From Candidatus Kapaibacterium sp. (GTDB taxonomy: Bacteria; Bacteroidota; Ignavibacteria; Palsa-1295): DNA of 64,000 nt. Under the pieces are notes generated by a model. That model did not search any database. It was not told the origin of the DNA and saw nothing but the letters and a program-made list of their open reading frames with translations. Location of the stretch: NCBI GenBank assembly GCA_017882165.1, contig JADGPZ010000003.1:878-64877 (forward strand), given 5' to 3'. Positions 437-12,363 of this stretch are shown here, piece after piece (position 1 is the first letter of the stretch; the number at the start of each line of letters is the position of its first letter). The translations under genes and the position numbers were made by a program.

Positions 437-2893
437 ATGGCTCAATCATCGAACGGAGTAAACTTGCCAGTCGTAACTGCATCGCCCACGATGCAACCAT
501 TCCAGATCGCGGCGGAATCCGTTCCTATGGCCGAAATTCGCGCCAACAAGCGCGCGATGGCCGTCGAGACCACGCGAGAGTTGGTCGAGCGGGTTTATCA
601 GTGTTCGGAGAAGAACCTCGCCATCGTCCGCAAGCGGCTTGGCAGGCCACTGACGCTCGGCGAGAAGATCGTCTTCGGACATCTTGCTGAGGCTGAGACG
701 CAACCGCTCGAACGCGGCAAGAGCTTCCTGCGACTGATGGTAGACCGCGTCATCATGCAGGACGCAACGGCGCAAATGGCGATCCTACAGTTCATGCAGG
801 CTGGTAAGTTCGAGTCCGCAGTGCCGGCGAGCGTCCACTGCGATCACTTGATTCAGGCTTATGAAGGTTCCTCGACCGATCTGGGGCGCGCGCTTGATAC
901 GAACGCCGAGGTCTACAACTTTTTGAAATCCGCCTGCTCGAAGTATGGCATCGGTTTCTGGGGACCCGGCTCGGGCATTATCCATCAGGTCGTGCTGGAG
1001 AACTATGCCTTCCCCGGTGGTCTGATCATCGGCTCAGATTCGCATACGCCAAACATGGGCGGGCTTTCGATGGTCGCCATTGGCGTGGGCGGAGCGGATA
1101 CAGTGGATGCAATGGCCGGTTTTGCATGGGAGGTGCTGAATCCGAAACTCGTCGGCGTCAAGCTTACGGGCGAACTCAGCGGATGGGCAGCGCCGAAGGA
1201 CATTATCCTCCACGTCGCTGGCAAGCTAACGGTCAAAGGCGGCACGAACCGCATCATCGAATATTTCGGACCGGGCTGCGCGACGCTCTCGACCACTGGC
1301 AAAGCTACGGTCACCAATATGGGCGCGGAGATCGGCGCGACGACATCAGTCTTCCCGTTCGACCAGAACGCCGTCCGCTACATGAATGCAACCGAACGCG
1401 CAGAGCTGGGAAAACTTGCGGAGCAGTACAATCATCTGCTCACTGCCGATCCGGAAGTCGAGCAAAACCCGGAGAAGTACTTCGACGAAATTCTTGAGAT
1501 TGATCTTTCGAAATTGGAGCCGCTTATCAACGGCCCGTTTACGCCCGACCTGGCCCGGCCTGTTTCCGAAATGGCGAAGGATGCTTTGGCGAACGACTAT
1601 CCCGAGAAGGTCTCCGTGACGCTCGTTGGCTCCTGCACGAATTCGAGCTACGAGGACCTTTCCCGCGCTGCGAAGATTGCCGAGCAAGCGCGCGCCGTCG
1701 GTGCCCGCGTGAAGATGCCATTCTTCATCAATCCCGGCTCCGCACAAATTCGCGAGACGATCGAGCGCGATGGACAGCTCGCCTCGCTCGAAGCAATCGG
1801 CGGCGAGATGATGGCAAATGCCTGCGGTCCGTGCATCGGACAGTGGAAGCGCGATGACATCAAGAAGGGCGAGCGCAACACAATCATCAGTTCATACAAC
1901 CGGAATTTCCCAGGACGCAACGACGCGAATCCGGCTACGCTGGCATTCGTCGCAAGCCCGGAAGTCGTTATTGCCTACGCACTTGCTGGCGATCTCTCAA
2001 TTAATCCTTTATGTGATGAATTGACCGCCGAGGGCGGGAAGAAGTACCGCCTCACTCCCCCACCGAAAGTCGATGCCCTGCCGGCCAACGGCTACGCGGG
2101 TCGCCGCAAGGGATACATGCCGCCCGCGCCAAACGCAAGCAGCGTTGCAGTAGTCGTGGGGAGTGGCGACCCCGCCACTCCCAGCGAGCGATTGCAGATT
2201 CTCGATCCCTTCCAGCCAATGGTGAAAGATGAGATGACCGACCTGCCGGTGCTCATTAAGACCAAAGGCAAAACGACCACCGATCACATCTCGCCAGCCG
2301 GCACGTGGCTCCGGTATCGCGGACATCTCGATAAGATTTCGGATAACATGCTGACCGGCGCGATCAACGCGTGGTCCGGCGAGGCGGGCACGACGACGAA
2401 TATCTATACTCACGAAAAGAGCGTGCCGGTGCCACAGGTTGCGCGCGATTACAAGGCTCGCGGCAAGCGATGGGTCATCATTGGCGATGAGAACTATGGC
2501 GAAGGCTCGAGCCGCGAGCACGCCGCGATGTCGCCGCGATATTTGGGATGCCTCGCGGTTGTCGTGCGGAGCTTTGCCAGGATACACGAGTCCAACCTGA
2601 AGAAGCAGGGAATTCTGCCGCTCACGTTTGTCAACTCGGCGGACTATGACAAGATCAAGGAAGGGGATACCGTGTCGTTCGAGTATTTGCAGGAGCTTGA
2701 TCCTGTCCGCACGGTCAACATGAAAGTGAACCACCCCGATGGGACTTCTGAAATCATCGCGCTGGCGCATACGATGAACATGGAGCACATCGCCTGGTTC
2801 GAAGCCGGAAGCGCGCTCAATCTGATCCGTCTGCACGCGGGCGAGGCCTCGCTCACGGCCGGGATGCAGGAAGCGCCGCCGGTCGCGGCGTAA
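437..2893 (+). CDS. Aconitate hydratase (aconitase family)
   Basis: 843-aa ORF from TTG 362; probable ATG at 437 (MAQSSNG...). Aconitase hallmark motifs: IGSDSHT, GSCTNSS, CGPCIGQW, SYNRNFPGRN and SREHAA. Confidence 0.9.
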   Translation: MAQSSNGVNLPVVTASPTMQPFQIAAESVPMAEIRANKRAMAVETTRELVERVYQCSEKNLAIVRKRLGRPLTLGEKIVFGHLAEAETQPLERGKSFLRLMVDRVIMQDATAQMAILQFMQAGKFESAVPASVHCDHLIQAYEGSSTDLGRALDTNAEVYNFLKSACSKYGIGFWGPGSGIIHQVVLENYAFPGGLIIGSDSHTPNMGGLSMVAIGVGGADTVDAMAGFAWEVLNPKLVGVKLTGELSGWAAPKDIILHVAGKLTVKGGTNRIIEYFGPGCATLSTTGKATVTNMGAEIGATTSVFPFDQNAVRYMNATERAELGKLAEQYNHLLTADPEVEQNPEKYFDEILEIDLSKLEPLINGPFTPDLARPVSEMAKDALANDYPEKVSVTLVGSCTNSSYEDLSRAAKIAEQARAVGARVKMPFFINPGSAQIRETIERDGQLASLEAIGGEMMANACGPCIGQWKRDDIKKGERNTIISSYNRNFPGRNDANPATLAFVASPEVVIAYALAGDLSINPLCDELTAEGGKKYRLTPPPKVDALPANGYAGRRKGYMPPAPNASSVAVVVGSGDPATPSERLQILDPFQPMVKDEMTDLPVLIKTKGKTTTDHISPAGTWLRYRGHLDKISDNMLTGAINAWSGEAGTTTNIYTHEKSVPVPQVARDYKARGKRWVIIGDENYGEGSSREHAAMSPRYLGCLAVVVRSFARIHESNLKKQGILPLTFVNSADYDKIKEGDTVSFEYLQELDPVRTVNMKVNHPDGTSEIIALAHTMNMEHIAWFEAGSALNLIRLHAGEASLTAGMQEAPPVAA

Positions 2894-2925: not shown

Positions 2926-3147
2926 TCAGAGCTTTTCCCACTCTTCGCGGGAGATATGCGCTTGGCGTAAGACCTTTTTCAACAGGTCAATCGCAATATC
3001 TCCGCGATGCGGATTAGGAATTTTGACTCTGCGAGAAACACCGATGTTCATGTAATCGTGATCACCTCCAGCACGAGGGCCATCAAACCCGGCGCGCCGG
3101 AGTGACGCGATCAAATCACGACGGCTAATGGGTCCGAAATGCGGCAT
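2926..3147 (-). CDS. hicA: HicA-family mRNA interferase toxin
   Basis: 73 aa. By my recollection the sequence resembles YcfA/HicA toxins. It overlaps the upstream hicB by 1 nt (TGATG). Confidence 0.6.
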   Translation of the reverse strand: MPHFGPISRRDLIASLRRAGFDGPRAGGDHDYMNIGVSRRVKIPNPHRGDIAIDLLKKVLRQAHISREEWEKL

Positions 3148-3386
3148 CAGGCTGGGACGTGCTCGTTGATGTCAATGCTATCGATAACCGGAATCTCAGC
3201 CCCATCGCGAAGACCGAGGATAAGCCACCCCTCGAGCGTACCTCGAAGGTCCTTCTCCGTATCCGCTAACGTCAACTCGTTCGCCCAGACTCCGTTGCAC
3301 TCAGGGATCTCTCCGTAAAATGACTTATCTTCTAAAATCTCGTATCTCGCGTGCCGCATCGCGGCGTCGATATATTCGGTCAGCAT
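3147..3386 (-). CDS. hicB: HicB-family antitoxin (UPF0150)
   Basis: 79 aa, ATG start, acidic. Translationally coupled to hicA, a typical type II TA organisation. Confidence 0.55.
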   Translation of the reverse strand: MLTEYIDAAMRHARYEILEDKSFYGEIPECNGVWANELTLADTEKDLRGTLEGWLILGLRDGAEIPVIDSIDINEHVPA

Positions 3387-3647
3387 GATTTTTTAACCGC
3401 GTCCGTAGCGAGGAAGTTCAGCCGTAGGGAGCCTCACCGCAGCAACATAACCGGCAGCGTGTGGACGCGGCCGTGCAGCGGATGATGCACTCGTACGCAC
3501 CCGACGCGGCGCAGGCATTCTCGGCTGCACCCTGGCGAGGCATCGCTCTCGGCCGGCATGCAGCAAGCGCCGCCGGAACCGGTGGCCGCGCAACATTTGC
3601 AGTGGGAATCGTTAGATTACCTTTCCCACACACGTTATCGAGATGCA

Positions 3648-4412
3648 ATGCTGAAGTTCACGGCCGTTTTTCTGCTTGGCGTAGCACTTCCGCATTTGAT
3701 TCATGCGCAGCAGCATCCGTTTAGGTCGGTTAGCTCTCAAGCCATAACCCTTTCCGAGCCTGAACTCGCAAGCATGGAGACAAAACAGGATCCGGGTACG
3801 GTTTTGGATAGCGGGCGATCTCTTGTGTTCTCAGCACGCACGGTCACCATTGTGATTCGCACCGGGCCGAGCGATGATATGCTCTCATATCGGATTCAGG
3901 GTCTACGAAATCCTACGCTCGACTTCCGACCTGGCGTCGAAGTGCACCTCCTCTTAGCAAACATGGACGATGACATGCACCACGATTTGCGTTTCGGCCG
4001 CAAGATGCACGCGTACATGCCCAATCCGGATACGGCTGGAACCGTTGGAACACACCGTCTTGCTCCTTCTCAGAGCGAGAAGTTCTCCGCTGAAGAAATC
4101 GTGTTCCGTTCGGTGGATACCGGGACGTTCAGCTACTTTTGCAGCGTCAAGGGGCATGCGGCTGGTGGCATGTCAGGGCATATTGTCATCGGAAGTAATC
4201 CTGCCTCTCTGGCGGCGATGCTAATTGGCCAATCTCCGATGAAGATGAGGACCACCGATGCTGGCTCACCGATGGACATGAAGCAAAGTGGCATGGAGAT
4301 GAAGTCTGGGACGATGATGGACTCAAGCAGGACGATGAAGCCGGGCATGAACATGGAACACTCCATGAACGGCCCGGCAAGTGGGGTCCTCCTCACGGAG
4401 CCGATGTCATAG
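3648..4412 (+). CDS. Secreted rusticyanin-like type-1 copper protein (cupredoxin) with a Met-rich C-terminal tail
   Basis: Signal peptide MLKFTAVFLLGVALPHLIHAQQ from ATG 3648. Cu-site motif YFCSVKGHAAGGMSGHIVIG (C-x4-H-x4-M; Cys codon 4140-4142) matches my recollection of rusticyanin (CQIPGHAATGMFGKIVV). Tail MKMRTTDAGSPMDMKQSGMEMKSGTMMDSSRTMKPGMNMEHSMNG resembles CopB/PcoB Cu(I)-binding Met motifs. The ORF ends at TAG 4410-4412, in frame with the next ORF. Confidence 0.7.
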   Translation: MLKFTAVFLLGVALPHLIHAQQHPFRSVSSQAITLSEPELASMETKQDPGTVLDSGRSLVFSARTVTIVIRTGPSDDMLSYRIQGLRNPTLDFRPGVEVHLLLANMDDDMHHDLRFGRKMHAYMPNPDTAGTVGTHRLAPSQSEKFSAEEIVFRSVDTGTFSYFCSVKGHAAGGMSGHIVIGSNPASLAAMLIGQSPMKMRTTDAGSPMDMKQSGMEMKSGTMMDSSRTMKPGMNMEHSMNGPASGVLLTEPMS

Positions 4413-4463
4413 GAGGGCTCTGGGACAAGTTGGCTTCCCGCATCCTCGCCGGTCTATGCGTCA

Positions 4464-5543
4464 ATGTACGAGAGTAATGGCTGGATGTCCATGCTGCACG
4501 GATCGATAATGCCGCGATTCGATCATCAGGGCGGGCCACGCGGCGGAGGTAAGTTTGATGCGCCGAATTGGATCATGGGGATGCTGAGCCATGACATCGG
4601 GAGTGACGGTCGCCTCACCTTCCGAGGAATGTTCAGTCTTGAGCCGTTAACCGAGGGCAGTTGTTATCCGATGCTGTTTCAAACGGGAGATACCTGGCAG
4701 GGTCAGCCCCTGATTGATTACAAAGATCCTCACAATCTCTTTAGCGAACTATCGGCAACGTACAGCCAACGATTGGCCGACCACTCATCGGCCTTCCTTT
4801 ACATCGGCTACCCGGGCGAACCAGCGCTTGGCCCCTCGGTCTTCATGCACCGACCGAGCGCGATGTCGAATCCCGATGCGCCGATCAGCCATGATTGGAT
4901 GGCCGGGACGCACATTACATTCGGAGTCGCGACTGTTGGCGTCAGCCTCGGTAATTGGAAATTGGAAGGGAGTGCGTTCAACGGAAGTGCGCCCCAGAGT
5001 CTGTATGGCTTCGATAAGCCGACGATCAATTCCTACAGTGGCCGGCTGTCGTTCAATCCGACTAACGAACTTTCCTTTCAGATATCCAGTGGACACATCA
5101 CAAATCCCGGAGGCGATAGCGTCGATCTCATCCGCTCCACCGCGTCGGCCATGTACACAAAGAATTTTGGTGACGGTTCGTGGTGGGCAACGACACTCTG
5201 TTGGGGTGAAAATCATGAGATACATTTCGCGAAGGAAGAAGCTCTCCTTCTCGAGTCGCAATACACGATTGAGGACTACAGTTTCTTTGGCCGAACCGTT
5301 TACGTTCAAAAGTCGGATGTTGAACTGGCATTCTCAGATAGCAGAACGCAACTCCATGATCTATCTGATGCAGCCATCGGGTTAACCCGGACCCTCTTCG
5401 ATCTTGCTGGAATGGAAGCTGGGATTGGCGCCCAGATTTCATATCATTTTGTACCAGAGTCCTTGCGTCCCCTCTACTCTGCTCATCCGGTTTCCTTTGA
5501 GCTATTCTTTGAAGTTCACTCTACCATCATGTCCGGAATGTGA
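4464..5543 (+). CDS. Putative outer-membrane beta-barrel protein (CopB-like?) without its own signal peptide; likely the C-terminal continuation of the upstream cupredoxin through an in-frame TAG
   Basis: 359 aa with an alternating amphipathic beta-strand pattern. N-terminus MYESNGWMSMLHG has no signal peptide. Same reading frame as 3648..4412, separated only by TAG 4410-4412. Confidence 0.45.
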   Translation: MYESNGWMSMLHGSIMPRFDHQGGPRGGGKFDAPNWIMGMLSHDIGSDGRLTFRGMFSLEPLTEGSCYPMLFQTGDTWQGQPLIDYKDPHNLFSELSATYSQRLADHSSAFLYIGYPGEPALGPSVFMHRPSAMSNPDAPISHDWMAGTHITFGVATVGVSLGNWKLEGSAFNGSAPQSLYGFDKPTINSYSGRLSFNPTNELSFQISSGHITNPGGDSVDLIRSTASAMYTKNFGDGSWWATTLCWGENHEIHFAKEEALLLESQYTIEDYSFFGRTVYVQKSDVELAFSDSRTQLHDLSDAAIGLTRTLFDLAGMEAGIGAQISYHFVPESLRPLYSAHPVSFELFFEVHSTIMSGM

Positions 5544-5799
5544 GTGGACTCCTTTGGGAAGTGTTTTGCCCGATAGCAGCTTCGGACAGCCAAGCTGGGA
5601 TTGCGGTCAACGCCACAGTGGTGTAGCGAGGTCAACCGGCGCGCAGATTACGAAGCCGCATAGGATCAGAGCAAGCGCCTTGACCCCCGAACGCCAGCGG
5701 TTGTTCGGGATGTTCAGATTCAACATATTAGTCGTGGCCTCTGGCCCGACCGAATTGTCACGGACGTTCTGGTTATCTCCGCGCGTGGCTTCCGTCAAA

Positions 5800-5930
5800 C
5801 CCCTCGCTTTTTCGGTCGGGCCAGAGTCACCGACCTACGCGTCTCGCTGGGCCGGGAAACCCGGCCACTACAGTTTGGCATTTCGTGTGCTGTGTTATGG
5901 TGTGGTTAGGGGCACCAATTAGCTCATTGA
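5800..5930. repeat. Hairpin-rich intergenic repeat element (includes ggccgggaaacccggcc 5849-5873)
   Basis: Shares gggccgggaaacccgg.ctaca with 11990-12014, followed by a similar gtgtt..ggttaggggcacc tract. Confidence 0.4.
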
Positions 5931-6255
5931 CAATGGATTCTGGGCGATTCATGAAAGAGACCGGCTCAATTGGCGAAATCCGTTCGTTTTGGGATATGAA
6001 AAGAACAAACACACGAAGCCGGATTTTCTTCCGGATGTGAAGATGCGGTGCCGTTAACTTTTCTTACGTTATCGTAAAGATAGCTAACGGTCGAAGCATG
6101 ACGCTCGCTGACTAAAGCGCGGAAGGCTTGCTCGGCAGCGCAGCCTTTCTCATACAACGGGATTGGCACAGAGACTGCTACTGTTCTTCCGGTTCGTCAA
6201 TCGGTTGAGTTGAGACACTCTCCCGCTAATCCGAAAAACGATAATAAAAGGAGCC

Positions 6256-7557
6256 GTGCGCATCAGCATGATTCGGAATAATTTTATCTTCGCCGCAGCA
6301 ATCGCGGTCACAGTCCTCGCCACAAACGGACAGTCCGCTCGGGCAAATCCGCTCTTTGCGCGGCAGTACAACACGTCGTGCTTCACGTGCCACACCTCTC
6401 CCCCGCTGCTCAATGAGTACGGCCGCCGGTTTCAGGCGAACGGCTACCAATTGCCGACGACGAGTGATAACATGGCGCAGGCAGCGCGGTCGGTGTTTCC
6501 GCTCGGACTTGTGGTGACGCCCATGGTGATGCACTCGCAGGTCCATGACAATCTCGCGGACAGCGCGATTTCGAGTTCGACCACGATTACCGGAATCATG
6601 ATGCGGTTCTTTACATCGGCATCGCTCGGGCAGCACTTCTCGTATTATGCCGGCATCCCGGTGACGGTCGCGAATGGCGAGACGAGCGTCGAGATCGAGA
6701 CGATCCATCTGCTCTACACCGATGTGCTCGGCGATGGACGCGGCGCGCTCAATTTCCAGATGGGCAAATTCCTGCTCTTCGCTCCGTTCACGCCGATGTT
6801 CTTGCTTTCCGGCGACGACCCGATCGTGTACAACGCCATGCACTACAAACCCATCGGCGAGAAGTTCGCTGCGAACGATATGAGCCTGACGAACCCGATG
6901 TTCGGCGCGAGCGCCTTCGGAACGCTCTATGGCATCGGACAGGGACTCCGCTGGCAAGTTGGAATGGTCGGCGGCAACAACAGCGACGTCGATCTCTCGA
7001 CCGCGCGCGCATTCTTCGGCTCGCTCGATCAAACCGTATTCTTCCACAATGCCCCTGCCCGATTTGGTGGCTTTTACTTCACAGGTTATCAGGATCTTTC
7101 GAGTTCGGAACCGGGGACATCAACCGCGATGGCAGGTATGCCTGGCATGGGAGGCAGTTCCGGCACGGGGCTTCTCAACCCGTGGCACAACAACGTAACG
7201 CGATTCGGCGGCGACTTGGAAATATACGACCCGTGGACCAAGCGGTTTGACTTCTTTGCGCAGTACATGGCGTGCGTGGACGACAACGTCGATAGCCTCG
7301 GGACGTCTTACAAAATGAGAGGCGGGTTCTTCGGCGTCAATGTGATTCTCATGCCGGAGAAACTCTACGCCTACGCCAGATACGATTGGATGCAGCGACT
7401 CACATATAAGAACGACCTTAGCGCCATTGATGTGGGCGTGCGATACCACGTCCTTCCGAACGTCGTCGTGACCGGCGGCGCGACGATCGCCAAAGAGGTA
7501 TCACTCATCGACCAGACGACGACATCCATTCGCGGCGGATTTCTTTTCGGATTCTAA
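6256..7557 (+). CDS. Cyc2-like fused monoheme cytochrome c / outer-membrane porin (candidate Fe(II) oxidase or extracellular electron-transfer protein)
   Basis: Signal peptide, then a single CxxCH (NPLFARQYNTSCFTCHTSPP) within ~25 aa of the mature N-terminus. The remaining ~380 aa are beta-strand-rich and end in GGFLFGF (C-terminal Phe of OM barrels). GTG 6256 or ATG 6268 start. Confidence 0.6.
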   Translation: MRISMIRNNFIFAAAIAVTVLATNGQSARANPLFARQYNTSCFTCHTSPPLLNEYGRRFQANGYQLPTTSDNMAQAARSVFPLGLVVTPMVMHSQVHDNLADSAISSSTTITGIMMRFFTSASLGQHFSYYAGIPVTVANGETSVEIETIHLLYTDVLGDGRGALNFQMGKFLLFAPFTPMFLLSGDDPIVYNAMHYKPIGEKFAANDMSLTNPMFGASAFGTLYGIGQGLRWQVGMVGGNNSDVDLSTARAFFGSLDQTVFFHNAPARFGGFYFTGYQDLSSSEPGTSTAMAGMPGMGGSSGTGLLNPWHNNVTRFGGDLEIYDPWTKRFDFFAQYMACVDDNVDSLGTSYKMRGGFFGVNVILMPEKLYAYARYDWMQRLTYKNDLSAIDVGVRYHVLPNVVVTGGATIAKEVSLIDQTTTSIRGGFLFGF

Positions 7558-7569
7558 CCAACGCAGATC

Positions 7570-8349
7570 ATGATTCTCCAATCCATTACCACCATCTGCG
7601 CGATCGGCGTCATTGCCGGTAGTTCGCTTACACTCGATCGGCCCAGCGCCGGATCGGATACGCCGGGCGCAGCTTCCGTCCCATCCGAGATGATCGCACG
7701 CGGCAAGACGGTCTTTGACATCGGCTGCTCGCCGTGCCATGGACTCGAAGGAGCGGGCGATGGCCCGCTCTCCGCCAATTTCCGGACACGCCCGCGCGAT
7801 CTCACGAAGGGTGTATACAAGAGCAGGTCCACGGCAAGCGGCCAGCTCCCCACCGATGATGACATCGACCGCGCAATCAGCGCAGGTATTCACACCAGCA
7901 CGATGCCGCCGTATCTCAAGATGTCGCCGGATGACCGCGCCGCAGTGGTGCAATACCTCAAGACGCTCGCCGTGCGCTTTACGGATTCGACCGAGTACCC
8001 GCTGGAAGTCCTCACGTTCAACCAACCGATTCCGGCAACTCCGCAGAGTATTGCGCTGGGTCGCGCAGCCTATATAAAGATGCAGTGCGATAACTGCCAC
8101 GGTGCATTTGGCAAAGGCGATGGCGTGTCATCAGAACTTCAGCACGATGATTTCGGCAACTACGTCCACACCACGGATCTCACGAACGCTTCCGATTTCA
8201 AATTCGCCCAGTCGGCGCAAGATGTCTATCGCATCTTCTCGACCGGCATGAACGGCTCACCGATGCCCTCCTATGCCGGGACGCTTCAGGACTCCGACCG
8301 CTGGCATCTCGCGAACTACGTGTGGGGTTTGCACGGTGGCGAGCGGTGA
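7570..8349 (+). CDS. Diheme c-type cytochrome (class I, c4/Cyc1-like), periplasmic
   Basis: Two CxxCH motifs (GCSPCHG and CDNCHGAFG) with Met candidates as sixth ligands, N-terminal signal/TM. Lies 12 nt downstream of the Cyc2-like gene. Confidence 0.7.
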   Translation: MILQSITTICAIGVIAGSSLTLDRPSAGSDTPGAASVPSEMIARGKTVFDIGCSPCHGLEGAGDGPLSANFRTRPRDLTKGVYKSRSTASGQLPTDDDIDRAISAGIHTSTMPPYLKMSPDDRAAVVQYLKTLAVRFTDSTEYPLEVLTFNQPIPATPQSIALGRAAYIKMQCDNCHGAFGKGDGVSSELQHDDFGNYVHTTDLTNASDFKFAQSAQDVYRIFSTGMNGSPMPSYAGTLQDSDRWHLANYVWGLHGGER

Positions 8350-9960: not shown

Positions 9961-10183
9961 GGGAGCCGCAGCACGCATCCCACTCATCCCTCACATCCCA
10001 ATAATCCCAGTTCAGCCTCCCCGCGCCGGTTTCTTCGTAAATTGCAGCATGAACAAGGGGCGCCGTATCCTCCGAAGCCCGCGCTACCCGGATTTATCGC
10101 TCGGACGCTCGACGTTTGAGCGTGCGCACGCGGAGGATCGACAAATCTTAGGACTCTTCGCTCCCAGTGGTAGTTACTATTGG

Positions 10184-11842
10184 ATGCGAAGAATGCTCGC
10201 CATCTGCTCTGTTATGATGATCAGTGCCCTCGGCTGCGCTGAGAATAGTCCGTTTACCCAGTCCTCAACGAAGTGGATGGCTGCATACATCAAGGCGTGG
10301 GGCTTCCTGAAGTATTACCACCCGGATGTAACGCAAGGTAAGGTCAACTGGGATTCGACTTTTTTGGCTCAATACCAGAAGGCATGCTCATGTAATGATG
10401 CAAAGGATTTCTCAATCATCGCATCGGATCTGATACACACCGCTGGTGGGGTAAAGTCTTATGGCTATCGGAGTCCCGATGAGTTGAAGGTACTTGATGA
10501 GTCTGATACTAATCTCCTTGACCTTAGATGGTTGAAAGACAGATCTTTGGTCACGCCGGATATTCAGAGGTCGTTGGACTCCATCCGCAGTAATGTCGTA
10601 CCTGAGTGGACTTCGTATGTTGTGCATGGGGAATCCGGTACATCCGATGTTGGAAGCGACGTTGCTCATGATTCTGACGTGACAACAACGATGCCCGTTC
10701 GGATGTTGGCGCTTGCACGATATTGGAATGTAATCGAGTACTTCGCTCCTGACAAAGATGTGATTGGCGAATCGTGGGACTCCATTCTTTATCGATTTAT
10801 CCCACGAATCGCTGCGTCGACGACCGAGAGCGAGTATCAACTTGCAATGGCAGAATGCTGTAATAGTATCCACGATACACATTCTTATACGTCCAGCGCC
10901 ACTATCGACTCGATTTTGGGGCAATATGTGTTGCCAATTCGATTGTCTCGTATCGAAGGTAAAGTTATTGTTCGTCGTCCATGTCTCGGGATTTCGACTT
11001 CATTGAAACCAGGCGACGAGATCTTGGCCATTAACGGCATGCGTTTGTCCGATCGGCGCAAGACCTTGGCCAAGCTTGCTTCCGCTTCAAACGATGCGGC
11101 ACTCGAACGAAATATTTGTTGGTGGATGACACGTTGTGCATACAAGGATTCGGTTCTCATTGAATATCGATCGGTCAATGGGATTCAATCCTGCAAAGTG
11201 AAACCGCTTACCATCGAGGAATTTAAGAAGATTGTTGAAATTGATTCGTCAAAGCACTGGAAGATTCTGGATGGTAATATTGGATTCGTTAATATGGGGG
11301 AGCTTACCGTCGCGGAAGTGAAACAGGCGATGTCGGATTTAGCTCGAACGAAGGCGATCATTTTCGATGTCCGCAATTACCCGAAAGGGACGCTATGGAG
11401 TTTGGCGACTTATCTAAGGGTGAATGCGCCTTGGGTCTCGTGGCGACGCCCAGATTTCCATTCTCCCGGCTCATTCATTCGTGAATCATCGCAAACGAAT
11501 AGCTATTTAAGTTCGACCAAGGGCTATAGAGGCCGAGTGATCGTTCTGGTTAATGAAAATACGCAGTCTCATGCTGAGTATACGGCAATGATGCTCCGAA
11601 GGGCTGAACGTTCAGTCGTGATTGGTAGTCAAACGGCCGGGGCGGATGGGAATGTTGTTCGAATGACGTTGCCCGGTGGTATCCATACGATTTTTAGCGG
11701 TCTCGGCGTCTTTTATCCCGATGGTAAACCGACTCAGCGAGTCGGAATCGTCCCAGACATCCATGTCGAGCCGACCATCGCAGGTCTTCGCGCTGGCAGA
11801 GACGAAGTCCTTGAGCGGGCGATCGAGGTTGCCAAGGAATAG
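10184..11842 (+). CDS. S41-family peptidase (C-terminal processing protease-like) lipoprotein
   Basis: Probable start MRRMLAICSVMMISALGCAEN (lipobox LGC). S41 catalytic region VIVLVNENTQSHAEYTAMMLR ... GSQTAGADGN ... GIVPDIHVEP. Confidence 0.7.
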   Translation: MRRMLAICSVMMISALGCAENSPFTQSSTKWMAAYIKAWGFLKYYHPDVTQGKVNWDSTFLAQYQKACSCNDAKDFSIIASDLIHTAGGVKSYGYRSPDELKVLDESDTNLLDLRWLKDRSLVTPDIQRSLDSIRSNVVPEWTSYVVHGESGTSDVGSDVAHDSDVTTTMPVRMLALARYWNVIEYFAPDKDVIGESWDSILYRFIPRIAASTTESEYQLAMAECCNSIHDTHSYTSSATIDSILGQYVLPIRLSRIEGKVIVRRPCLGISTSLKPGDEILAINGMRLSDRRKTLAKLASASNDAALERNICWWMTRCAYKDSVLIEYRSVNGIQSCKVKPLTIEEFKKIVEIDSSKHWKILDGNIGFVNMGELTVAEVKQAMSDLARTKAIIFDVRNYPKGTLWSLATYLRVNAPWVSWRRPDFHSPGSFIRESSQTNSYLSSTKGYRGRVIVLVNENTQSHAEYTAMMLRRAERSVVIGSQTAGADGNVVRMTLPGGIHTIFSGLGVFYPDGKPTQRVGIVPDIHVEPTIAGLRAGRDEVLERAIEVAKE

Positions 11843-11889
11843 TCTACTCCGTGCATTCTGCACTTTGTCGTTGCCGCGTCGGGCGGGTT

Positions 11890-12100
11890 AGCGTGCAACC
11901 AAAACCACACACGACCTGAGCGGCCGGTGTGCAGGTGCCGGGCAACCAGGACCTGGATCCCCGCTTCTGCGGGGATGACAATGTGGTGCGGGCCGGGAAA
12001 CCCGGACGCTACAATTTTTGACTATTTTTGGAAAGCTCTTGCGTGGCGGTTTTTCATGTGTTATATTGCTCGTGAGGTTATGGGCACCTATTCTAAAAGA
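11890..12100. repeat. Hairpin-rich intergenic repeat element (ggatccccgcttctgcggggatgaca 11955-11980; gggccgggaaacccgg 11990-12005)
   Basis: Shares motifs with 5849-5873 and with the inverted pair at 29351-29435. Confidence 0.4.
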
Positions 12101-12363
12101 ACGTGTGTCTTGTCTAACAGCAGTTTATTCATGAACTCCAATCAAAAAAGAGAAATCAAAAAAATTTGATGTGTGGCGTTTTTGGAACGGAGTGGGCATT
12201 GTTCATGAAGCACAAACGCTCGCGCGCAATAGAGCATGCGAAAAGTACATTGCCGTGTGGAAGCGGCATTGCTATCCTCAAGCGATTCTTCGCTGCGCTC
12301 AGAATGACGGACATTGAAACTGACCTTCTACCATTTTCTCGGAACAAGCCCCTCCCTGTTCCG

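Follow-up and report, generated by a model that had tools for sequence, protein, structure and literature searches.

An inherited nonsense mutation truncates a cupredoxin-porin gene of a copper-linked family in Candidatus Kapaibacterium

We analyzed a 64,000-nucleotide stretch of DNA from Candidatus Kapaibacterium sp. (assembly GCA_017882165.1, contig JADGPZ010000003.1, positions 878 to 64,877), hereafter called the window, in which two adjacent open reading frames (ORFs) between positions 3648 and 5543 encode a cupredoxin and a β-barrel, respectively. The TAG codon that separates them is a real, inherited nonsense mutation, and the locus is an ordinary broken gene. Our reading, to which we assign a probability of about 0.75, is that the gene belongs to a widespread family of copper-linked cupredoxin-porin fusions, that it was truncated by this mutation, and that its barrel half is a remnant.

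One reading frame with a single internal stop

Translation of positions 3648 to 5543 gave only one internal stop, and the frame remained open to 5543. The first ORF starts at ATG 3648 and runs for 254 codons until it is terminated by the TAG at 4410-4412, and the ATG at 4464 is in frame with ATG 3648 (both positions are multiples of 3). The cupredoxin ORF could also be opened by an ATG farther upstream, at 3558; as the orthologues begin at the MLKF/MLKY equivalent of 3648, the latter is the likely start. The features of this region are as follows.

3648-3707, plus strand: predicted Sec signal peptide, MLKFTAVFLLGVALPHLIHA, followed by QQ
3714-4196, plus strand: rusticyanin-like cupredoxin domain with a complete type-1 Cu site
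4197-4409, plus strand: Met-rich linker or tail, probably disordered, with 14 Met in 71 residues
4410-4412, plus strand: in-frame TAG nonsense codon that replaced an ancestral Gln codon, CAG (orthologue alignment and Logan contigs)
4413-4463, plus strand: start of the former barrel domain, with the motif EGSGTSWLPASSPVYAS, unreachable for lack of an in-frame start
4464-5543, plus strand: remainder of the former porin-barrel coding region, a 359-codon ORF under relaxed constraint and with no export signal

The signal peptide was read by eye from a basic residue, a hydrophobic core and an A-x-A-like end, and its start is common to the orthologues. The predicted Cu ligands are H112 (3981-3983), C165 (4140-4142), H170 (4155-4157) and M175 (4170-4172), with the spacing C-x4-H-x4-M, and the Met-rich linker that follows the domain differs in length among the aligned orthologues.

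Two adjacent ORFs are expected to share a frame in one of three cases by chance alone. The 17 codons between the TAG and ATG 4464, the first possible start after it, contain no in-frame ATG, GTG or TTG, and they translate as EGSGTSWLPASSPVYAS. This segment holds the motif that is best conserved in the family, EGSGTSWLPASSP, and in an alignment of 14 sequences the residues E256, G257, S258, G259, T260, W262, P264 and P268 were invariant. As this motif is encoded by codons beyond the reach of any start, the shared frame on both sides of the stop is more than a chance coincidence. The 359-aa product predicted from ATG 4464 begins with MYESNGWMSMLHG (MYESNGW...) and has no signal peptide. A scan of positions 3300-6300 for promoters and terminators found nothing above chance. 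These results confirmed what the initial annotation had described, i.e., two ORFs in one frame split by a single TAG, a Met-rich tail after the cupredoxin, and a barrel ORF with no export signal of its own.

More than 6,600 relatives were returned by a protein search with the post-TAG translation as the query, and those that were both closest and intact (P0002-P0015; 54-74% identity) were mostly 576-652 aa long and carried an N-terminal cupredoxin. Among them, 13 metagenome orthologues covered 98-99% of the query and aligned end to end over the junction, with Q in the TAG column in 10 of the 13 and K, E or M in the others; only sense codons (Q, R, K, M, E) were found in this column in the other sequences compared. 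The codon opposite the TAG was CAG in all six of the closest genome lineages, and the lesion is therefore a single C-to-T transition.

A scan with a cupredoxin-domain profile, using one genome per species, gave 80 loci, mostly from Acidobacteriota (Pyrinomonadaceae, Blastocatellia and Chloracidobacterium) and otherwise from metagenome-assembled genomes (MAGs) of Ignavibacteriae, Kapaibacterium and Bacteroidetes, and from Abditibacteriaceae and Fimbriimonadales. After three loci fetched via homologues (L002-L004) were included and duplicates were dropped, both parts of the protein were present in 71 loci, and in 68 of these they formed a single uninterrupted ORF of 573-694 codons. Collectively, the comparison supports the proposal of the initial annotation that both ORFs are halves of one ancestral gene of ~630 aa, encoding a signal peptide, a cupredoxin, a Met-rich linker and a β-barrel; the check it had suggested, whether homologues are uninterrupted, was run and bore the proposal out. 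Its view that such a fusion would be an unusual architecture did not hold, as the cupredoxin-porin combination occurs in at least 71 species-level genomes.

The three exceptions among the 71 loci were L060, L053 and L017. The apparent change of frame in L060 was caused by a run of N, and was discarded, while L053 has a frameshift in the linker, here also called the tether, and lies on a low-coverage contig. In L017, from an Abditibacteriaceae chromosome (OZ255721.1), an in-frame TAG (GGC TAG GAC, nt 10526) lies inside the Met-rich tether, either as a mutation or as a long-read error; the cupredoxin before it is complete and was called as P0175 (213 aa), and the barrel after it is stranded. The sequences of P0171, P0174 and L053 are broken or end oddly in or just after the low-complexity Met-rich tether, which suggests that this region is prone to frameshifts, assembly errors or slippage. 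P0016, a protein of 358 aa, was considered as another case of a barrel alone, but with a gene that begins at base 13 of a 1.7-kb contig it is cut off by the contig end.

It could be argued that the locus now works as two genes, with the barrel translated alone from ATG 4464 or by re-initiation and still reaching the outer membrane. The 359-codon ORF has stayed open, and an AGGAGG sequence overlaps the stop (4411-4416). We nevertheless regard this as highly improbable: the protein would have no signal peptide and would lose the invariant EGSGTSW..P motif, the AGGAGG is coding sequence for Q-E-G that is common to the intact orthologues, all the barrel-only relatives have their own signal peptide and Met-rich leader in the same ORF, and the region after the TAG is under relaxed constraint, as described below.

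Reality of the stop and fate of the barrel half

The 254-aa product was recorded on the NCBI contig of the window and in the Logan assemblies of three sequencing runs, SRR10489837, SRR30681715 and SRR30681716, in which the sequence TCA TAG GAG was identical. The contig from SRR10489837 showed 1 mismatch to the window in 6,294 nt. Those from SRR30681715 and SRR30681716 (L088 and L089) represent a second strain, strain B, with 43 mismatches over 5,658 nt (99.24% identity). As the TAG is shared by all three runs and both strains, it is no sequencing or assembly error, and it either predates the split of the strains or was inherited with the locus. The chance that the true codon is CAG, with the gene intact, is next to nil. 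A single transition turns CAG into TAG, and the contig in question (65,423 bp) was assembled from a metagenome; against this, the same base was found in independent assemblies of runs whose accession numbers are far apart, and two of the three runs stem from a distinct strain. When JGI metagenome contigs were scanned for an exact match to the junction, allowing any base at the site of the mutation, none was found, and hence there was no population evidence for a CAG allele.

The comparison of both strains was informative about the fate of each part. The aconitase gene showed 11 synonymous and 1 nonsynonymous substitutions, and the cupredoxin ORF 1 synonymous and 0 nonsynonymous, whereas the post-TAG region showed 2 synonymous and 9 nonsynonymous (Fisher p = 6e-4 for the post-TAG region against aconitase). 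When the last 22 divergent codons were dropped, 1 synonymous and 3 nonsynonymous substitutions remained after the TAG (p = 0.027). Strain B carries a D-to-E replacement at the invariant D304, and the window strain a G-to-C replacement at the nearly invariant G339 and a P-to-S replacement at P625. Moreover, at 130 otherwise invariant barrel columns the window had six private deviations, the most of the 14 sequences in a leave-one-out analysis, as compared with 0-2 in its closest relatives. Given this nonsynonymous excess and the replacement of invariant residues, the barrel half looks like a decaying remnant.

Near the end of the locus, positions 5472-5658 diverged from strain B (L088) by ~12%, as against 0.4% upstream, and no alignment was obtained beyond them. 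This sharp change suggests a recombination or insertion boundary.

The sequence of events would then be as follows. In this lineage, a C-to-T transition converted the Gln codon CAG at the boundary between tether and barrel into TAG; translation would stop at 4412 and yield a 254-aa secreted cupredoxin with a Met-rich tail. This truncated product may still work, and it resembles natural stand-alone members of the same cupredoxin subfamily. The barrel half, with no start before its conserved N-terminal motif and no signal peptide, would be a non-functional remnant that gathers replacements.

A different possibility is functional recoding, i.e., that the TAG is read through by a suppressor tRNA, a near-cognate tRNA-Gln or pyrrolysine in a regulated gene with two products, mostly soluble cupredoxin and some full-length cupredoxin-porin. 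The stop falls precisely where the disordered tether gives way to the barrel, and either product would thus be well formed; the stop and the open frame after it also persist in two strains. A second, independent in-frame TAG is found in the tether of the Abditibacteriaceae orthologue, and Gln, the ancestral residue here, is the one most often inserted at leaky UAG codons in Escherichia coli. However, the stop is not conserved, with a sense codon in 68 of the 71 loci and the TAG of L017 at another position, and the downstream ORF shows the nonsynonymous excess given above, with invariant residues lost in both strains. The search for a stimulatory RNA structure after the stop found none, the fold of positions 4395-4500 being unremarkable (z = +0.67 against shuffled sequences). 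No suppressor tRNA with a CUA anticodon was found in the 64-kb window, where only tRNA-Ala and tRNA-Asp were detected, and TAG is a common terminator, ending 10 of the 34 long ORFs of the window, or about a third. We consider recoding unlikely. A general reassignment of TAG was rejected, given this same use as a terminator and the finding that TAG separates ORF pairs in the same frame no more often than TAA or TGA does. Therefore, of the explanations offered by the initial annotation, pseudogene, sequencing error or readthrough, the first stands as a real nonsense mutation with relaxed constraint downstream, error is dismissed, and readthrough found no support.

Several points weigh against the reading of a truncated, copper-linked gene with a barrel remnant. 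The strain comparison rests on only 11 substitutions after the TAG, and seven of these fall in the last 22 codons, near the probable recombination or insertion boundary. After the TAG the frame has remained open over 376 codons, as one would expect when divergence is about 1%, and this says little in either direction. That the truncated cupredoxin is still functional is hinted at solely by the 0 nonsynonymous and 1 synonymous substitutions in 254 codons, a count with no statistical power. Low-level UAG readthrough by a near-cognate tRNA-Gln may take place, and would restore the ancestral residue. As for copper, the role of the family is deduced from its domains and neighbours, no cop or cus genes were found in the 64-kb window itself, and no experimental test of any family member was found in the literature.

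The intact protein and its gene neighbourhoods

To describe the protein before its truncation, we used orthologue P0004, which is 69% identical to the window in the barrel. Its AlphaFold2 model, built from a 58-sequence alignment, had a mean pLDDT of 84.8 and showed a folded N-terminal domain, a disordered segment at residues 194-238 (pLDDT below 50), equivalent to the Met-rich linker of the window, and a large barrel. The only strong sequence match in the PDB was rusticyanin (E 1e-11). The rusticyanin equivalog model TIGR03095 gave the window 76.4 bits and P0004 67.2 bits, both below its cut-off of 146.7 bits; with this sole strong match and the scores under the cut-off, the domain is rusticyanin-like but not a rusticyanin.

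The modelled barrel has ~16 strands and a general-porin-like fold, in line with the barrel-like character that the initial annotation had ascribed to the second ORF. Pfam gave no family at E ≤ 0.1 for positions 4413-5540, PF05275 included, the NCBIfam search of the barrel gave no match, and its PDB sequence search returned cupredoxin matches only. In 58 diverse members, the invariant residues, among them five His at positions 272, 351, 390, 404 and 411 of P0004, cluster in the entry motif (SGT.W.P) and in long inter-strand loops, the conserved ones being QHPHD, GYPGEPALGPPxFMHR and APxSHHWxDATH. From these patterns we infer that the loops, rich in His, Met and Asp, may line or constrict the pore and bind metal.

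The barrel family, with its more than 6,600 database proteins and no Pfam or NCBIfam model, combines with interchangeable N-terminal modules: a cupredoxin, a heavy-metal-binding HMBD domain (PF19335) or a Met/His-rich leader. Relatives with HMBD or only a Met/His-rich leader where the cupredoxin stands here always have it behind their own signal peptide, and they share the same barrel (43-50% identity) and the same (D/E)GSG(T/S)xW.P entry motif. Stand-alone cupredoxins with Met/His-rich tails belong to the same cupredoxin subfamily (P0177, P0178 and a 196-aa paralogue in L012). Another protein, P0172 (284 aa), joins a cupredoxin of this subfamily with a CusF-like Cu(I)-binding domain in place of a porin, one more modular combination that points to copper.

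The gene neighbourhoods of the orthologues were rich in copper genes. A copper-type P1B ATPase lies directly downstream in L002 and L004 (TIGR01511, 618 and 584 bits; cut-off 397), followed in L004 by an HMA protein, and an ATPase of this type was present within 10 kb in 12 of the 71 loci. In L010, L012 and L014 (MAGs of Bacteroidetes, Ignavibacteriae and Kapaibacterium), genes for heavy-metal efflux surround the fusion gene. The cluster runs from a TolC-like outer-membrane factor through an adaptor with a CusF-like end and a stand-alone cupredoxin paralogue to the fusion gene, and continues with a monohaem cytochrome c, two genes of CusF type and a pump of the CusA/CzcA family (1,121 bits; cut-off 701). 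One barrel relative that lacks the cupredoxin, from Mucilaginibacter, has the gene order HYC_CC_PP, barrel, DUF3347 and HMA.

Other neighbours were observed in these loci. The cupredoxin paralogue of L010, L012 and L014 is 194-196 aa long and stands immediately upstream of the fusion gene. The monohaem cytochrome c of L012, predicted to be membrane-anchored, stands 22 nt behind the fusion gene and hints at a redox partner, and small cytochromes c are found near the fusion gene in 10 loci. In 52 of the 71 loci, a small secreted Cys/His-rich ORF of about 120-145 aa precedes the fusion gene on the same strand, at a distance of ~158 nt (e.g., L060 9388-9816, L012 6025-6390 and L004 9230-9595), and the window has no such ORF. 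These small ORFs gave weak NCBIfam matches to CzcI (E 1e-3) or HYC_CC_PP (E 6e-5), and no match in a Pfam scan.

Because the orthologues adjoin copper genes, a copper conduit in the cell envelope is the best-supported mechanism for the family, and it would also fit by analogy with the PcoA/PcoB pair and CopI, discussed below. In such a conduit, Cu(I) in the periplasm would be captured by the Met-rich tether together with the cupredoxin, which would act as acceptor or donor; the type-1 site may oxidise Cu(I), possibly passing electrons to a c-type cytochrome; and the barrel, with invariant His, Met and Asp in its long conserved loops, would conduct copper across the outer membrane. We infer that copper is what is transported, as well as the redox step and the transport direction.

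Downstream of the broken gene, positions 6256-7557 encode a ~430-aa protein with an N-terminal CFTCH haem motif, Cyc2-like by architecture and with no Pfam or NCBIfam match, and positions 7570-8349 encode a dihaem cytochrome c. The family of the Cyc2-like protein comprises 47 database proteins from Kapabacteria, Bacteroidota and Kryptobacter. The initial annotation had seen in the cupredoxin-barrel gene a copper analogue of the Cyc2 next door. Detection with the proteins of the window found neither a Cyc2-like nor a dihaem cytochrome neighbour in any of the 80 related loci. In agreement, the closest relative genome, GCA_030706365.1 (L090), has the order aconitase, nitroreductase, CarboxypepD_reg protein, Cyc2-like protein and dihaem cytochrome c, the last two at 10001-12110, and its locus contains no hicAB, no cupredoxin and no barrel gene; identity to the window is ~89% at the amino acid level for aconitase, 68.5% for the Cyc2-like protein and 72.9% for the dihaem cytochrome. 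As a functional link, the proposed relation to the neighbouring Cyc2 was thus not sustained.

The position of the gene is better described by a direct repeat found upstream of it.

2828-2882, plus strand: 55-nt direct repeat, copy 1, at the 3' end of the aconitase gene, 87% identical to 3522-3576
3522-3576, plus strand: 55-nt repeat, copy 2, just upstream of the cupredoxin gene, marking the insertion site

The two copies bracket hicA/hicB (2926-3386, minus strand), and copy 2 is 87% identical to the aconitase 3' end of L090. Strain B has a third copy after the cupredoxin-barrel gene (L088 8249-8329). The arrangement suggests that small cassettes were inserted one after another at the aconitase 3' end, and since the cupredoxin-barrel gene lies in this insertion hot spot, its adjacency to the Cyc2-like and dihaem cytochrome pair is incidental.

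These neighbourhoods also bear on the idea that the family conducts electrons and not copper: as a counterpart of Cyc2 with a copper cofactor, it would take electrons from extracellular Fe(II) or another donor, and in the window it would have cooperated with the adjacent Cyc2-like and dihaem cytochrome genes. The architecture does parallel that of Cyc2, with an N-terminal redox domain followed by a ~16-stranded porin; the cupredoxin is closest to rusticyanin, an electron carrier in iron oxidation; the order of cupredoxin-barrel, Cyc2-like and dihaem cytochrome genes in the window recalls rus, cyc2 and cyc1; and the cytochromes c of L012 and the other loci could be counted in its favour. We judge it very unlikely. 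Against it stand the absence of a Cyc2-like or dihaem neighbour in the related loci, the L090 genome with its aconitase, Cyc2-like and dihaem genes and no cupredoxin-barrel gene, and the repeats that place the gene at an insertion site. Moreover, the recurring neighbours are CopA, Cus and HMA genes, the sister architectures carry non-redox metal-binding modules (HMBD, Met/His-rich stretches) in place of the cupredoxin, and in the window the gene is inactivated while the cytochrome pair is intact. There is also a slim chance that the family is a redox-active outer-membrane module that oxidises Cu(I) or another extracellular or periplasmic reductant and delivers the electrons to c-type cytochromes, with the tether TAGs of the window and L017 as tolerated or leaky switches that adjust how much cupredoxin is soluble and how much is anchored to the porin.

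We return to the reading of a copper-linked family in which the gene of the window is a truncated member. The result for this locus is mainly corrective, as the two ORFs are one gene broken by an inherited nonsense mutation, and the locus should not be taken as a new iron-oxidation or recoding system. Its wider value lies in the uncharacterised barrel family that it exposed, and not in the stop codon. Genes of this family stand next to copper ATPases and genes of Cus type in Acidobacteriota, the Ignavibacteria/Kapabacteria/Bacteroidota group and further phyla. We found no description of the cupredoxin-porin fusion or of the barrel family in the literature, in a search of an incomplete library that gives absence of evidence only. 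To our knowledge, copper passage over the outer membrane is poorly understood outside Proteobacteria and the role of PcoB is still debated, and the family is for this reason a concrete candidate for such passage.

Comparison with known systems

The cupredoxin of the window is ~24% identical to rusticyanin of Acidithiobacillus ferrooxidans (PDB 1cur/1rcy; TIGR03095), with which it shares the cupredoxin fold and a type-1 site of His, Cys, His and Met with the C-x4-H-x4-M spacing. Rusticyanin is a free protein, whereas the cupredoxin here was tethered to a porin, and the orthologues adjoin copper-export genes and not cox or cyc genes. The iron-oxidation context of rusticyanin (cyc2, cyc1, cox) was not found, a Cyc2-like neighbour being present in this window only and in none of the 80 related loci. 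The likeness to Cyc2 is one of architecture, i.e., an N-terminal redox-cofactor domain and a ~16-strand C-terminal porin in one polypeptide. The translation of 631 residues contains no CxxCH, the predicted cofactor is type-1 copper instead of haem, a long Met-rich tether lies between the domains, and no association with iron-oxidation genes was seen in the 80 loci.

PcoB/CopB is an outer-membrane barrel that follows a disordered Met-rich periplasmic N-terminus, is found in copper-resistance contexts, and is genetically paired with a cupredoxin-type protein, the multicopper oxidase PcoA (PMC9210255, PMC7558416). The Met-rich, disordered and periplasmic N-terminal region is shared with the protein described here. 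However, the barrel of PcoB is 12-stranded and OmpLA-like (PMC9210255), whereas the one modelled here has ~16 strands, is general-porin-like and has no match to PF05275; the barrel is therefore not PcoB/CopB-like, and the CopB-like label given to it in the initial annotation has to be withdrawn. PcoA, in turn, is a separate oxidase of three domains, while here a single type-1 domain is fused in cis.

CopI of Rubrivivax gelatinosus is a periplasmic, single-domain, plastocyanin-like blue-copper protein that is copA-linked and copper-induced (PMC7558416). The truncated 254-aa cupredoxin with its Met-rich tail would resemble CopI when compared by features and not by sequence, these being the type-1 Cu ligands, the Met/His-rich region and the export signal judged by eye; the ancestral state here is, in contrast, a fusion to a porin. 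With general 16-stranded porins (Omp-Pst1, OprP, DcaP, PorB and Omp32), the sequence identity of the barrel is 8-12%, and they differ from it in its long conserved loops rich in His, Met and Asp and its N-terminal metal-binding module. By the features that define them, the protein is neither a rusticyanin, nor a PcoB/CopB, nor a Cyc2, and the family to which it belongs is a variant of known copper-homeostasis components.

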